DNA of 64,000 nucleotides from an uncultured Candidatus Saccharibacteria bacterium. GTDB taxonomy: Bacteria; Patescibacteriota; Saccharimonadia; CAZHVB01. Position numbers and translations under genes: made by a program. Where the stretch lies: the NCBI GenBank assembly GCA_964600295.1, contig CAZRIY010000002.1:26133-90132 (forward strand), in the 5' to 3' direction. Shown piece by piece: positions 51,692 through 55,710 of this stretch. The notes beneath the pieces are model-generated. The model saw only the letters and a list, made by a program, of their open reading frames with translations, did no database searches and was not told where the DNA came from. Each line of letters starts with the position of its first letter. The stretch's first letter is position 1.

Positions 51692-51868
51692 ATGAAAAGA
51701 CTACCGAAGATGCTTAATCATCCGGTACCTATTTTATTAACATTAGGTGGGTTATTTATTGTAGCCTCGATCTTTATGGGCGAATTTTTTGTGATACCCG
51801 GGATTATTCTAATGATAATCGGAGTGTGGTACTGGAAGGGAACGGTTTGGCCATTCTCGGACAAATAA
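51692..51868 (+). CDS. small membrane protein, 58 aa (MKRLPKMLNHPVPILLTLGGLFIVASIFMGEFFVIPGIILMIIGVWYWKGTVWPFSDK)
   Basis: ORF bracketed by repeat copies 2 and 3, with two hydrophobic helices; it is below the ORF-track size cutoff. Confidence 0.4.
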   Translation: MKRLPKMLNHPVPILLTLGGLFIVASIFMGEFFVIPGIILMIIGVWYWKGTVWPFSDK

Positions 51869-51870
51869 TT

Positions 51871-51891
51871 GAAACCGAAATTAAGATGTAA
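51871..51891 (+). repeat. third copy of the rpsJ 3' end (gaa acc gaa att aag atg taa = ETEIKM-stop)
   Basis: Imperfect direct repeat of copies 1 and 2. Confidence 0.6.
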
Positions 51892-51904
51892 TTCTGATAG
51901 TTTC

Positions 51905-52441
51905 ATGGAACCCCAAGCCATCTCTAACAGCGAGCCATTGCCTATCGATGCGGTTACTGAGCTTCGATCTCAAATAGACGACCTCTTAATTGATATGAGA
52001 GAGTCTATAGAGGAGGTGGGGGAGCATCAGTATACCCATATATTAAAGACTTTTATGTCTGGAGCCAGAGAAATTATCATTGAAAAAAGTAAAACCGATG
52101 AGGACCCAGACTTCTTACGTTCGGTTGGCATCCGAGAGTTCATTAAGGATCCAAGTGGCCAGAAAGCGGTGCTAAGGACAGTCTATTATCTTTGGACAAA
52201 TCTGGATATAACTAAGGAATACCACATAGCGGATAATCGTGGACCATGGGAATTGAGCGAGCCGTTCAAAAAATTCTTAAGGATACTTAATGGAAGTGAT
52301 GAAGAGCTAAACCCGGCTGAGGAAGAGGAGATGTTGCGGATAGGAGGAGGTGGTGAATTGCGCGAATTCGCTAGAGACGCAGAAACCGTTTCAGGTGAAG
52401 AATTGACCCAAGTTAAAAAATTATTGGCTAACCTTAGCTAA
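51905..52441 (+). CDS. hypothetical acidic protein, 178 aa
   Basis: AT-rich ORF; start placed at MEPQ because the track's start lies inside repeat copy 3. Confidence 0.5.
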   Translation: MEPQAISNSEPLPIDAVTELRSQIDDLLIDMRESIEEVGEHQYTHILKTFMSGAREIIIEKSKTDEDPDFLRSVGIREFIKDPSGQKAVLRTVYYLWTNLDITKEYHIADNRGPWELSEPFKKFLRILNGSDEELNPAEEEEMLRIGGGGELREFARDAETVSGEELTQVKKLLANLS

Positions 52442-52450
52442 AAAAAACCG

Positions 52451-52466
52451 GGTAGCCAGGGCTACC
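52451..52466. terminator. hairpin ggtagcc-agg-gctacc with an A8 run upstream (reads as a T-run terminator on the minus strand)
   Basis: 6-bp GC stem; orientation ambiguous. Confidence 0.3.
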
Positions 52467-52470
52467 AAAA

Positions 52471-52499
52471 TTGCTAACACCAGCTATATATTATATAAT
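52471..52499 (+). promoter_or_regulatory. near-consensus sigma70 promoter TTGCTA-N17-TATAAT abutting the ATG at 52500 (possible leaderless transcript)
   Basis: Exact -10 consensus hexamer and 17-nt spacer. Confidence 0.4.
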
Positions 52500-52943
52500 A
52501 TGGTTATGGTTGGAGATACACCCGGTGCTCAGATTGAATCGAGAGTACATGATTTATTGGCTGAAATTAAAACGTCCGTCAAACGTCTTTTAGTAGCTGA
52601 GCGGATCCATTATAACGTTGAGGGTGAAGTCTATACTAAGTTTCGCGACTTCGACTCAGATACTAGCTCCTTGCGGGTTCAAGAGATGTCTTCCGATAGC
52701 AATATGAAAGATCCAGAATTTAATATCCATCTTTTTATATTCGACGAACTGCCTGCAAGCTCTGGAGATTACACTGCCTTGGATTTTAATCTATCATCTT
52801 CTAGATCGGTAACCGAAATTAGTGGCGTAAAGGACGGTCGCCATTATCAATATCCCGGTCGCGTATCTGATGCATCCGACCTTTCCGAATTAGCTGATTT
52901 GCTAAAGGACGCGCCCGCCCGGCAGACTACAGCTGATGTATAA
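52500..52943 (+). CDS. hypothetical acidic protein, 147 aa
   Basis: ORF immediately after the promoter-like element; weak N-terminal similarity to the 178-aa neighbour. Confidence 0.45.
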   Translation: MVMVGDTPGAQIESRVHDLLAEIKTSVKRLLVAERIHYNVEGEVYTKFRDFDSDTSSLRVQEMSSDSNMKDPEFNIHLFIFDELPASSGDYTALDFNLSSSRSVTEISGVKDGRHYQYPGRVSDASDLSELADLLKDAPARQTTADV

Positions 52944-52988
52944 AGAAAGCGCCCCGAGTCGGTTGTTGATTGACCCGGGGCGCTAACC

Positions 52989-53291
52989 CTAGAAGTTGTA
53001 GTTCGGCAATCGCCAGAGCTTGAGCCACGTGCTCATGATGACAAGTAGCCCGATCAGCATAATGACATCTCGACCACTGGCGAGAGGGAGATGGCGAGCT
53101 ATTGCCAGTGTGATGGCAATTATCTCCATCTCGATAACGATAGCGACGAGGGCCATCCATCCACGTGAACCCACTGGCTCACTATTGCCACCAGAATCAC
53201 CATAGAAGAATTCCTGGGGTGGTGGGGGAGGATCGTCGTAATGTTTAACGATCTCGTCGAAACTCTTATTTACATCAATGCTGTGGAGCAT
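52989..53291 (-). CDS. small membrane protein (100 aa; polyproline N-terminus, two transmembrane helices)
   Basis: Perfect AAGGAGGTGA Shine-Dalgarno 5 nt upstream on the minus strand, overlapping the stop of the upstream minus-strand gene. Confidence 0.55.
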   Translation of the reverse strand: MLHSIDVNKSFDEIVKHYDDPPPPPQEFFYGDSGGNSEPVGSRGWMALVAIVIEMEIIAITLAIARHLPLASGRDVIMLIGLLVIMSTWLKLWRLPNYNF

Positions 53292-53295
53292 TGGC

Positions 53296-53529
53296 TCACC
53301 TCCTTGGCCATATCAGCCAGACGACGATGATGGTGAAGGGCATCAGAAACAACAGGCTGACGATCAACCCCAACCCGCCATATCTATCTGGTTTGATGGC
53401 TGGCGCGATGGCAAAGATGAGCCAGATCGCCGCCAGCAGAAAAACGGTGAAGATCTTGACTGTATCGTCCGAGTTCATTGCTCGATCTTCTTCGTTGCTG
53501 AGAGGACGAAAGCCCAAAAACCACGGCAT
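53296..53529 (-). CDS. small membrane protein (77 aa, two transmembrane helices)
   Basis: Start placed at MPWF because AGGAGGTG lies upstream of it; the track's longer start is less likely. Confidence 0.5.
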   Translation of the reverse strand: MPWFLGFRPLSNEEDRAMNSDDTVKIFTVFLLAAIWLIFAIAPAIKPDRYGGLGLIVSLLFLMPFTIIVVWLIWPRR

Positions 53530-53655
53530 TTTGCACCTCCTAAGGTTCGGGTCTTCAACCACAGTGGCCGAAAACTATATCTAAGCCATATCATCAAAAA
53601 TAAATCCATGCAAGCAATATGGCAATCGGATATGGGGTGTGGTTAAATCAAGGAT

Positions 53656-53919
53656 ATGGCTAGATCAAAACAAAAAGTGGAACCAGATTCAGTCTATTTC
53701 TTAAAAATTTTACTGTTTTTCATCGTCGGTGCTCTCTGGCTGCGGCAGGATTTTGATGTACTACCTGGAATTAGCGCCTTACCGGTTGGCCTGGTTATCG
53801 GGCTGCTGTTTGCCAGGCATGAACATTTCATGATCGATCGCAAAATCGAATACTTGGTACTACTATCGGCCGCACTGCTGAGCTATTTGGCACCAATCGG
53901 CATCGTAATCGAAATCTAA
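53656..53919 (+). CDS. small membrane protein (87 aa, ~3 transmembrane helices)
   Basis: Hydrophobic ORF whose TAA overlaps the ATG of the downstream metalloprotease gene (TAATG). Confidence 0.5.
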   Translation: MARSKQKVEPDSVYFLKILLFFIVGALWLRQDFDVLPGISALPVGLVIGLLFARHEHFMIDRKIEYLVLLSAALLSYLAPIGIVIEI

Positions 53920-55664
53920 TGCGCCAATTTTTACGCAGAGTGAGGTGGTGGCGCAAAGACGCTCCGCGCCAGTTTTGGCTGGTAGTCGGGCTACTAATAT
54001 TGACTAGTGGCACAGTGGTTGCCCAAACTTTCCCAGTTAAACGTCAGCTGGTCTATGAGCCATGCCAAGCTAACTATGGTGAAACCGTTGGCGGTTGGGA
54101 CGGTGATGGTGATCAGGTTTGGAACGAACGCAACTTTCACTATGAAGTGCGCCGCTTCCGAATTGAAGCCGCTGCTCCTATCGGTTGGTTCCATAATGTT
54201 CAGGAGCAACCGCCTAGCCGATTGTCTACCGTCGATTGCCAACCAGAATTACAGGGTTTTGTTGACACTAATCATGACTCCTATCAATGGTTTGGCGCCC
54301 GCACCTCCGCTATTCGCTTGGGCATGCCGGACTTAGGAGAACTTAACCAGGGTGGTCGTATCAAAATCGATCAGCCCAGAACCAAACCGGATGATGCCGT
54401 TTCGCCGCCGATTTTTGGTGATAGCCACGGCCGGGCCGCGGCTTGGGTGGACGACGGCGCCCAGGCCAATCTAGTGACTACCGACAAGGGTCAGCAGCTG
54501 TTATGGTGCCAGGGCAACAACCAGCCGCTCAATCCCGATCAATCCTGCAACGATGTAGCCGATATTGGCGGCAAGTCGGTGAGGGGAGTAGGCTACTTAT
54601 TCGTTGAAGATAATTGCCCAAAGGCGGGCGGCGTTAACTGTGACCAAGCCACTGCCTGGTATAGACGCCAAAACCTCGATTACAGCCAGCTTATTGGCAG
54701 CAACCAGCGGGGCGAGCTTAATCCTTTTTACTTGCAGCTAGATGCGGTTTCAACCTACGCTAACCGGGTTGGAGCCTGGATGGTACTGACATTTAAATAC
54801 CCCAAGCTATCCAACATCAGCAATCAAGTCAGCCTAGATAAACAGACCTATCAGGTGGGCGAAACTATCACAGCCACCGCCGGTTTTTCCAAAATTGGTC
54901 CTACTGTTACCAACCTTAGTATCAATCCAGATCTCAGTAACCAGCCATTGCAAATTATTGCCAATTTTGAAACTTCCACCGGCAACTTGGAGGACATTAA
55001 TAAAGGAAAAGAAGCTGAAGCAGCCGCCAAGTTTAAGATCACTGATGCTGCCCAGCCCGGCCAGTGTTACAACCTAACCTTTAACTTTCAAGCGGAGAGC
55101 ATTTTGGAGGTTGATGGCAGCAGAGAGGTTAAACTGGCGCCGCTGGCTAGCCGTTACTGCATTGCCGCCCCTGCCAGCGCTACTTATACCTACAGTGTAA
55201 CCACCCGCGGCAATGTGCAAAGTGATGTCAATGAATTTGCCGATTTGGCAGCCGAAACACTAGCTTCGGTGTCGGGTTGGTCACAAGCTGGGGCTGGTTT
55301 TAGCCGAGTAAATAGCGGCGGGGATTTTACTTTGGTGCTGGCGGCGCCGGATCAAATGACATCATTTTCTAGCGGCTGCGATGCTACCTATAGTTGTCAG
55401 GCTGGTGGCTTTGTAATTATCAACGATGAACGCTGGCGAACAGCTACGCCGTCATGGAATAATAACGCCGGTAGCCTGCGTGATTATCGCCACATGGTGA
55501 TTAATCATGAGACTGGTCATTGGCTGGGCTTTGGCCACCTCAACTGCTCGGCCCCCGGCGCGGCGGCGCCAGTAATGCAGCAACAATCGATCAGCCTGCA
55601 GGGCTGCGCTCACAATCCTTGGCCGACGCCGGCCGAAATCCAGACTTTAAAAAGCCGTCTCTAG
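53919..55664 (+). CDS. secreted/membrane-anchored metzincin-like zinc metalloprotease (HExxHxxGxxH), 581 aa
   Basis: N-terminal signal anchor (FWLVVGLLILTSGTVVAQ) and a C-terminal HETGHWLGFGH motif followed by Cys/Met residues. The large middle region is uncharacterized. Confidence 0.6.
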   Translation: MRQFLRRVRWWRKDAPRQFWLVVGLLILTSGTVVAQTFPVKRQLVYEPCQANYGETVGGWDGDGDQVWNERNFHYEVRRFRIEAAAPIGWFHNVQEQPPSRLSTVDCQPELQGFVDTNHDSYQWFGARTSAIRLGMPDLGELNQGGRIKIDQPRTKPDDAVSPPIFGDSHGRAAAWVDDGAQANLVTTDKGQQLLWCQGNNQPLNPDQSCNDVADIGGKSVRGVGYLFVEDNCPKAGGVNCDQATAWYRRQNLDYSQLIGSNQRGELNPFYLQLDAVSTYANRVGAWMVLTFKYPKLSNISNQVSLDKQTYQVGETITATAGFSKIGPTVTNLSINPDLSNQPLQIIANFETSTGNLEDINKGKEAEAAAKFKITDAAQPGQCYNLTFNFQAESILEVDGSREVKLAPLASRYCIAAPASATYTYSVTTRGNVQSDVNEFADLAAETLASVSGWSQAGAGFSRVNSGGDFTLVLAAPDQMTSFSSGCDATYSCQAGGFVIINDERWRTATPSWNNNAGSLRDYRHMVINHETGHWLGFGHLNCSAPGAAAPVMQQQSISLQGCAHNPWPTPAEIQTLKSRL

Positions 55665-55681
55665 CTAGATTCGACCTCTGG

Positions 55682-55710
55682 TTGACAGAGGTAACTAAGA
55701 TTGGTAGCAT
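55682..55710 (+). promoter_or_regulatory. sigma70-like promoter upstream of rplC (TTGACA-N17-TAGCAT), with the -35 inside palindrome CCTCTGgttgaCAGAGG
   Basis: Hexamers and spacing; the palindrome spans 55675-55691. Confidence 0.4.

Follow-up and report, generated by a model that had tools for sequence, protein, structure and literature searches.

We describe a pair of genes in a 64,000-nucleotide stretch of DNA (the window) from an uncultured Candidatus Saccharibacteria bacterium (assembly GCA_964600295.1, contig CAZRIY010000002.1), in which the gene for an 87-amino-acid (aa) membrane protein is followed directly by the gene for a 581-aa protein. Our results suggest that the 581-aa protein is an exported, probably membrane-tethered zinc endopeptidase of the metzincin type, a rare long form of the DUF3152 family, that its gene is a rider on a slot between the ribosomal protein genes rpsJ and rplC, and that it was anciently transferred between phyla. 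We put the probability of this explanation as a whole at roughly 0.7, with zinc binding and activity predicted from the sequence. The long form adds an architecture to a family that was already known. The original prediction, an earlier reading of the same DNA, was right about the family and about the coupling of the two genes, and it overstated acquisition from a host and a function as an effector.

A predicted exported protease of the DUF3152 family

The protease gene (53919..55664, + strand) was delimited from its open reading frame (ORF), its homologs and an AlphaFold2 model. The C-terminal part of the protein, aa 421-561, matches the Pfam family DUF3152 (PF11350) with an E-value of 1.3e-23 and a score of 84.2 bits against a cut-off of 25.1, and this profile search bears out the DUF3152-type domain that had been proposed. 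A precomputed DUF3152 domain is present in 14 of 14 database homologs. A search of 5.8 billion clustered proteins yielded 11 full-length homologs, of 542-649 aa and 37-54% identity, one of which, with 40% identity, is labelled by NCBI 'DUF3152 domain-containing protein [Candidatus Saccharimonadales bacterium]'. An NCBIfam scan of the 581-aa protein gave no match.

The DUF3152 domain contains the sequence HETGHWLGFGH (aa 530-540; 55506..55538, + strand), which has the form HExxHxxGxxH/D of the extended metzincin motif. Because the motif has an expected count of 7e-6 in a protein of such composition, we do not regard it as a product of chance. C543, M553 and C563 lie downstream, so that the signature followed by cysteines and a methionine is present as first reported. 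In an alignment of the 11 homologs, H530, E531, G533, H534, G537, H540, M553 and 11 cysteines are invariant and one more cysteine is nearly invariant. A further alignment comprises 22 catalytic domains drawn from both Saccharibacteria and Actinomycetota, and in it the residues H-E-x-G-H-x-x-G-x-x-H, the next cysteine and the stretch A-P-x-M-x-Q-Q are all invariant. Conservation of the zinc motif among homologs, on which the original prediction had staked its case, therefore holds in both alignments. The invariance of the metzincin residues and of the methionine across two phyla argues for purifying selection on catalysis. By analogy with other metzincins, H530, H534 and H540 would hold the zinc, E531 would act as the general base that activates water, G537 would be the turn glycine and M553 the methionine of the Met-turn under the metal. 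The candidate Met-turn methionine (55575..55577, + strand) lies 13 residues past H540 in the invariant stretch APVMQQQS, is flanked by the invariant C543 and C563, and falls in a part of the model (aa 551-560) with a predicted local distance difference test (pLDDT) score of 52.

The AlphaFold2 model was built from the 11-sequence alignment and has a mean pLDDT of 78.9 and a predicted template modelling (pTM) score of 0.63. It consists of a helix at aa 17-37, a beta-rich part at aa 50-295, a beta-sandwich at aa 296-415 with pLDDT above 90, and an alpha/beta C-terminal domain. In the C-terminal domain (aa 421-581; 55179..55661, + strand) the model has the beta-sheet, the active-site helix and the lower subdomain of metzincin catalytic domains. 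Foldseek matches the catalytic domains of the matrix metalloproteinases (MMPs) MMP-13 and MMP-12 at a probability of 1.0, and a profile made from the 22 catalytic domains aligns over about 100 residues, well beyond the motif itself, with MMP-12 and MMP-8 (E about 0.003) as well as with serralysins (E 0.006-0.02). From these fold matches and this profile similarity we regard the domain as a predicted minimal metzincin, which by sequence is outside the MEROPS families M7 and M10. The full 581-aa protein had no match to PDB sequences; it was only the 22-sequence profile that reached the MMPs and serralysins, and then weakly. Pfam Peptidase_M10 (PF00413) scored 12.2 bits, below its cut-off of 24, and the protein is therefore not a matrixin (M10A). 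Of the M10-type similarity that was to be looked for, the fold and the profile match stand and the Pfam match does not.

The closest solved fold is that of snapalysin, the small neutral protease of Streptomyces caespitosus (MEROPS M7, PDB 4hx3), at 19% identity. There was no Pfam or PDB sequence match to snapalysin or Peptidase_M7, so the likeness is one of fold and does not extend to membership of M7. The third zinc ligand of snapalysin is an aspartate, whereas the window protein has His540 at this position, as well as extra domains and a membrane helix. With the matrixins and serralysins of M10 (MMP-12, MMP-8, MMP-13, serralysin) the window protein has in common the HExxHxxGxxH motif, the profile similarity over about 100 residues and the fold, but it is without a cysteine-switch propeptide motif (no PRCGxPD-like motif), a hemopexin domain or an RTX domain. 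The closest known family is DUF3152 itself, which includes Rv3207c of Mycobacterium tuberculosis and whose actinobacterial members have the same invariant HExGHxxGxxH...C...APxMxQQ core. The actinobacterial members that we sampled are 199-988 aa long, many of them about 230-500 aa, and carry other N-terminal modules. Unlike these, the window protein has a 258-aa beta-sandwich and an Ig-like domain, and is encoded in the S10 operon behind a small membrane protein gene.

The N-terminus of the protease has a basic tail and then one hydrophobic helix, at about aa 17-38 by Kyte-Doolittle hydropathy and in the model (feature aa 17-37; 53967..54029, + strand; also evident in an alignment of N-termini). 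This agrees with the proposal of an N-terminal signal anchor as far as the helix is concerned, and the helix may serve as a signal anchor or, alternatively, as a Sec signal peptide of unusual length. The sequence VVA/QT would suit signal peptidase I, yet the site is not conserved in homologs. All 12 cysteines lie beyond the helix in the predicted extracytoplasmic part, which fits an oxidising location outside the cytoplasm. The protein is predicted to be exported and is probably membrane-tethered. In the mechanism that we propose, the basic cytoplasmic tail and the single helix would hold three extracytoplasmic modules, and the protease would either stay tethered or be freed by cleavage at VVA/QT.

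Between the helix and the catalytic domain there are about 380 aa (39-420), fewer than the roughly 450 aa of unrecognised sequence first described, and the model divides them into two beta-sandwich domains. The first is a family-specific, disulfide-rich domain (aa 39-296; 54033..54806, + strand) and the second is Ig-like (aa 297-415; 54807..55163, + strand). The first domain has no specific relative among known folds. In a full HMMER scan it was found in just 18 of 1.84 billion cluster representatives, 12 of which are the same protease family (546-649 aa). The other six are proteins of 751-1231 aa in which the domain comes directly after an N-terminal hydrophobic segment; elsewhere, five of them have no Pfam match and one has a sub-threshold Ig-like match. 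We infer that the first beta-sandwich does not serve the protease as a propeptide but is a rare, portable unit placed at the base of surface proteins. The six large proteins (P0146-P0151) share a conserved C-terminal region (for example ...LTVNG...F.F.R...) that has no Pfam match, and probably belong, as large surface proteins, to related organisms. In the long form of the protease the two beta-sandwich domains may be spacer or targeting modules.

DUF3152 architectures and a possible substrate

When one genome per species was scanned by pattern and the ORFs were then analysed, three types of DUF3152 protein emerged in Saccharibacteria. The long type, of 555-610 aa, is found in the rpsJ-rplC slot in the window and in loci L002-L004, L007, L011 and L086. 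The short type, of 232-270 aa, is found in the same slot and consists of a signal-peptide-like N-terminus and the catalytic domain. Behind its gene there is often a coupled one for a membrane/coiled-coil protein of 250-334 aa without a known family. The third type is a paralog of 457-530 aa that combines a transmembrane (TM) segment, a PG_binding_4 domain and DUF3152. The PG_binding_4 domain scores 36.1 and 28.4 bits in these paralogs against a cut-off of 22.1, with borderline scores of 21.7 and 18.5 in two more. The paralogs sit between uvrB and gatC-gatA-gatB in L021, L025, L036 and L048 and in 13 more loci (e.g. L025:4897-6483), a housekeeping context that is uninformative on function. They have the same scaffold as wall enzymes composed of TM, PG_binding_4 and YkuD, with DUF3152 replacing YkuD. 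Unlike these enzymes, the window protein has no PG_binding_4, and its two beta-sandwich domains are unrelated to that domain.

One contig of the PG_binding_4 type is labelled Nevskiaceae (L043, 51% GC) and one Parcubacteria (L051); both group with Saccharibacteria, and errors of binning or labelling are possible. Divergent DUF3152 proteins of 594 and 596 aa are found in Patescibacteria (L068:4774-6558 and L074:4789-6579), with an N-terminal zinc-ribbon-like CxxC...CxxC motif that is below the Pfam threshold. In both, the CxxC motif precedes a membrane segment, a PG_binding_4 domain (which exceeds its threshold in L068 but not in L074) and then the catalytic domain, an arrangement suggestive of a cytoplasmic head that senses a metal or a signal and is joined to a protease outside the membrane.

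Neighbouring genes also bear on the substrate. In L004 a gene for a TM, PG_binding_4 and YkuD L,D-transpeptidase protein immediately adjoins the long-type gene. In four distinct loci (L005/L006, L099, L123 and L124) a VanY D-Ala-D-Ala carboxypeptidase gene (E about 1e-36) lies divergently just upstream of a short-type DUF3152 gene (VanY at L005:4266-5018, L099:529-1317, L123:3579-4379 and L124:732-1607). The fusion to PG_binding_4 and the YkuD and VanY neighbours are the only pointers to function in these proteins, and they hint, circumstantially, at wall-peptide chemistry and so at a cell-wall substrate. We tentatively propose, at odds a little short of even, that the substrate is cell-envelope peptide material, either peptidoglycan-linked peptides or wall-associated proteins, belonging to the cell's own envelope or to that of a host. 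Were host walls its target, the protease would offer a molecular handle on the contact between epibiont and host; were the target the cell's own wall, it would add to the sparse picture of envelope remodelling in reduced cells. For DUF3152 more generally, a family that is widespread in Actinobacteria including M. tuberculosis (Rv3207c), a metzincin core that does not vary, a fold like that of snapalysin and the associations with PG_binding_4, VanY and YkuD together yield a concrete and experimentally testable hypothesis, namely an exported zinc peptidase that works on the cell envelope.

The protease may instead be a general scavenger of nutrients, a snapalysin-like enzyme that feeds an amino-acid auxotroph, in which case its place among ribosomal protein genes would tie the supply of peptides to the demand of translation. 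Snapalysin, the closest solved fold, is a secreted Streptomyces protease of broad specificity, the short type resembles a secreted enzyme of 160 aa with a cleavable-looking signal peptide, and the location in the S10 operon would suit such a role. The long form, however, is probably tethered and has two extra domains of a targeting type, and the PG_binding_4 fusions and the pairing with VanY favour the wall over soluble proteins. A DUF3152 gene is also carried by only 9 of the 49 loci sampled below, which would be odd for a core nutritional function. We consider scavenging unlikely.

Relation to actinobacterial DUF3152 proteins

The catalytic domain of the window protein has a mean identity of 60% to those of other long types, 53% to short types and 47% to the Saccharibacteria PG_binding_4 paralogs. 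Its mean identity is 50% to a near actinobacterial group (Nocardioides, Marmoricola, Blastococcus, Modestobacter, Microthrixaceae and Acidimicrobiia) and 36% to a distant one (Streptomyces, Brachybacterium, Saccharothrix and others). Identities to individual copies from Nocardioides, Blastococcus, Microthrixaceae and Acidimicrobiia are 47-58%. About 45 of 73 genome loci with DUF3152 are from Actinomycetota and about 26 from Saccharibacteria or other Patescibacteria, proportions that come from a scan biased by its search patterns. An unbiased tblastn search with the domain as query covered 72,556 plasmids of every phylum, and 15 of the 15 matching records were from Actinomycetota, including one of Actinomyces oris. 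The actinobacterial link noted at the outset is thus well founded, and a family that is otherwise limited to the donor phylum, with high identity across phyla, is the pattern expected of a transfer.

The composition of the gene has none of the signs of a recent transfer. Its GC content is 52%, close to the 49% of the window, while actinobacterial loci mostly have 65-75%. In a neighbour-joining (NJ) tree the main Saccharibacteria clade lies beside the near actinobacterial group, within the wider actinobacterial diversity, but with bootstraps too low to rely on. The phylogeny suggested in the original prediction therefore places the clade as expected and does not settle the direction of transfer, and the acquisition from a host that had been raised shows no detectable sign of being recent or host-derived, given this base composition and the fixed slot kept at 35-54% identity. 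The native GC content, the old synteny and the lack of resolution in the tree lead us to favour ancient over recent sharing. The catalytic domain appears to belong to a lineage common to Saccharibacteria and one group of Actinomycetota. The most economical reading would be an ancient transfer between the phyla followed by duplication and domain shuffling into the three Saccharibacteria architectures, with its direction not proven.

Among Actinobacteria, the Nocardioides type of DUF3152, which is closest to the Saccharibacteria copies (L042, L044, L023 and about 8-10 more loci), recurs near genes for Prok-JAB, ThiS-like, glutamate racemase and MBL-fold proteins. As a clue to function this neighbourhood, in which glutamate racemase would fit a role at the cell wall, is weakly suggestive; spurious ORFs in high-GC DNA polluted the clustering of neighbouring genes.

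The affinity to Actinobacteria also underlies the suggestion that the protease is a host-interaction effector, captured from an actinobacterial host, displayed on its beta-sandwich stalks and used to cut the host surface or wall for attachment or feeding. This overlaps with the envelope substrate proposed above if the envelope is that of the host. Cultivated Saccharibacteria have been shown to grow on Actinobacteria (PMC10633639). The catalytic domain is 47-58% identical to the copies of a family that is otherwise actinobacterial, its first beta-sandwich domain is common to very large, membrane-anchored and probably surface-exposed proteins, and Ig-like stalk domains are typical of adhesins. 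Against this, the composition gives no sign of recent transfer, the gene has a fixed slot in a housekeeping operon over lineages that are 35-54% identical, the paralogs lie between uvrB and gatCAB, and the same enzyme is found in free-living Actinobacteria that have no host. Nor do secretion-system or pilus genes adjoin the protease gene among the ORFs of the window in a Pfam scan. An effector role of this kind appears distinctly unlikely to us.

Several points weigh against the tethered, anciently transferred metzincin that we favour and against its envelope substrate. The structure is a prediction from 11 sequences, with pLDDT of 52-67 in parts of the catalytic domain. The literature searched contains no characterised DUF3152 member, so that activity and substrate are deduced throughout; it offers nothing on DUF3152 biochemistry or on snapalysin-like enzymes in Saccharibacteria, and names Rv3207c solely in adhesin and vaccine lists drawn up in silico. 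The presence of VanY and YkuD may be explained simply by an insertion hot spot of varying content, in which NUDIX, methyltransferase and MOSC genes occur too. PG_binding_4 is only a putative peptidoglycan-binding domain and is absent from the window protein. A link to phage lysins, which would have favoured peptidoglycan cleavage, had no backing: there was no PHROG match and no tblastn match among 50,697 phage records. The NJ bootstraps are low for all key groupings, with 12/200 for the monophyly of Saccharibacteria and 4/100 for the split between near and distant groups, and both the transfer and its direction are argued from identities and taxonomic distribution.

The small membrane protein and the rpsJ-rplC slot

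The gene pair lies in a standard ribosomal neighbourhood, rpoB-rpoC-rpsL-rpsG-fusA-tuf-rpsJ ... rplC-rplD-rplW-rplB, in which a 4.2-kb stretch parts rpsJ from rplC. The upstream boundary, rpsJ for ribosomal protein S10 (51274..51642, + strand), was assigned from its ORF, phmmer matches and Ribosomal_S10 in syntenic loci, and the downstream boundary, rplC for ribosomal protein L3 (55809..56441, + strand), from its ORF and Ribosomal_L3 in L001 and syntenic loci. A small gene and a DUF3152 gene are found between S10 and L3 in the window and in L002, L003, L004, L007/L008, L011 and L013, and the pair keeps this slot across lineages that are merely 35-54% identical.

The small gene (53656..53919, + strand), identified from its ORF, hydropathy and homologs, and the protease gene have exactly the extents and the overlap that had been claimed. 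In the sequence TAATG (53917..53921, + strand) the stop codon TAA of the small gene (53917-53919) gives its final A to the ATG of the protease gene (53919-53921), an overlap of one base. At this junction there is no obvious Shine-Dalgarno sequence before the protease ATG. Of 15 loci compared, among them long and short types, 14 have a distance of -4, -1, +1, +3 or +9 nt from the stop codon of the small gene to the DUF3152 ATG, so that overlap or near-abutment is a conserved property of the pair, and a Shine-Dalgarno-like sequence is usually absent from the junctions of these 15 loci. The overlap in the absence of an obvious Shine-Dalgarno sequence makes it likely that the two genes are translationally coupled through termination-reinitiation. 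The abutment behind the earlier claim of coupling is an observation and the coupling of translation a prediction from it. The protease would be translated by reinitiation after the small ORF, and would probably be expressed with or beside the ribosomal protein genes.

Kyte-Doolittle windows give three hydrophobic segments in the 87-aa protein, at about aa 10-31, 33-55 and 64-87, in agreement with the three transmembrane segments first proposed. The positive-inside rule suggests an orientation with the N-terminus in and the C-terminus out, in which the conserved loop would be cytoplasmic. The most conserved stretch of the family is FA.HDHFQIDRKIEY (consensus of 120 homologs), and an invariant His, Asp and Glu share one loop. 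A profile search in which 8000 candidates were scored found at least 3955 homologs, and those with a name are almost all from Saccharibacteria or Saccharimonadales. Pfam and NCBIfam have no family for the small protein, and no Pfam family was found among its homologs. In syntenic loci it is more conserved than the protease, with 61-64% identity as against 38-49%.

We fetched 80 metagenome loci using the small protein. S10 is upstream of the small gene in 48 of the 80 and L3 is downstream in 49; among loci that have at least 3 kb of downstream sequence, L3 is missing from just one. Where L3 is visible, a DUF3152 gene lies between it and the small gene in 9 of 49 loci and is lacking in 40 of 49. 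In the 40 loci without DUF3152 the gap between the small gene and rplC is 109-362 nt in 27 and 501-1719 nt in 13. The small gene is thus a near-universal resident of the rpsJ-rplC gap of Saccharibacteria, and the DUF3152 protease is a facultative rider. The small gene splits a pair of genes, rpsJ and rplC, whose adjacency is otherwise near-universal in bacteria. We did not find this insertion into the S10 operon of Saccharibacteria in the literature searched; as far as that search goes the setting is previously undescribed, and we consider it worth recording.

These observations bear on whether the two proteins form an obligate unit, in which the small membrane protein would serve the protease as anchor, chaperone or regulator, much as other membrane-associated metalloproteases are controlled by small partners in the membrane. 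The adjacency or overlap is kept in both long and short types, and the invariant His, Asp and Glu in a single loop of the small protein would be compatible with such a role. On the other hand, the small gene is without DUF3152 in 40 of 49 loci and its homologs number at least 3955 against a few dozen DUF3152 partners, it is the better conserved of the two proteins in the same loci (61-64% as against 38-49%), the prediction puts its conserved loop in the cytoplasm and the catalytic domain outside, and the PG_binding_4 paralogs have no such neighbour. An obligate unit is therefore slightly less probable, in our view, than the effector discussed above. The small protein was also considered, and rejected, as a dedicated partner of DUF3152: a role as a dedicated partner or inhibitor is disfavoured because the small gene so often stands alone and the conserved loop of its product is expected on the cytoplasmic side. 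A BofA-like inhibitor that gives a histidine to the catalytic zinc was rejected as well, as the His-rich loop is predicted to be cytoplasmic, the protein has no Pfam match and most loci are free of the protease.

A more specific scheme can be imagined in which the S10 operon carries a growth-coupled 'envelope cassette', consisting of the small membrane protein and a coupled metzincin of actinobacterial type that, on its beta-sandwich stalks, would cut host peptidoglycan or surface proteins at the site of contact. An enzyme anciently borrowed from the host phylum would then be directed at the chemistry of the host wall. We regard this as speculative and less probable again than an obligate unit. 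Least probable by far is a surface protein or adhesin that has lost catalysis and keeps just the fold of a protease: Rv3207c is listed as a predicted adhesin by in-silico screens and the window protein has beta-sandwich modules, but all catalytic residues of the metzincin motif and the methionine are invariant across two phyla.

The remainder of the rpsJ-rplC gap in the window (51692-53562) contains five ORFs without a family match. Three are on the + strand, of 58 aa (membrane), 190 aa and 147 aa, and two on the - strand, of 100 aa and 88 aa, both hydrophobic. The two minus-strand genes break up an operon that is normally continuous. The corresponding gap of other lineages contains NUDIX, methyltransferase, YkuD, VanY or MOSC genes, and because its contents differ between lineages it behaves as a variable cargo slot. 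The gap occupied by the small gene can in this sense be seen as a cargo slot for envelope enzymes.

No terminator was found in a scan 3' of the protease gene, and an Rfam search in and around the locus found no RNA family. In the 144-nt spacer before rplC a consensus scan identified a promoter-like sequence, TTGACA-17-TAGCAT with a TG extension (55682..55710, + strand; 10 of 12 matches), although promoter-like sites across the region are no more numerous than in shuffled sequence. This site is suggestive only; it may restart the transcription of the ribosomal genes past the insertion, in which case rplC would be transcribed from it. A small hairpin, CCTCTG-gttga-CAGAGG, at about 55676-55692, overlaps the promoter-like site.

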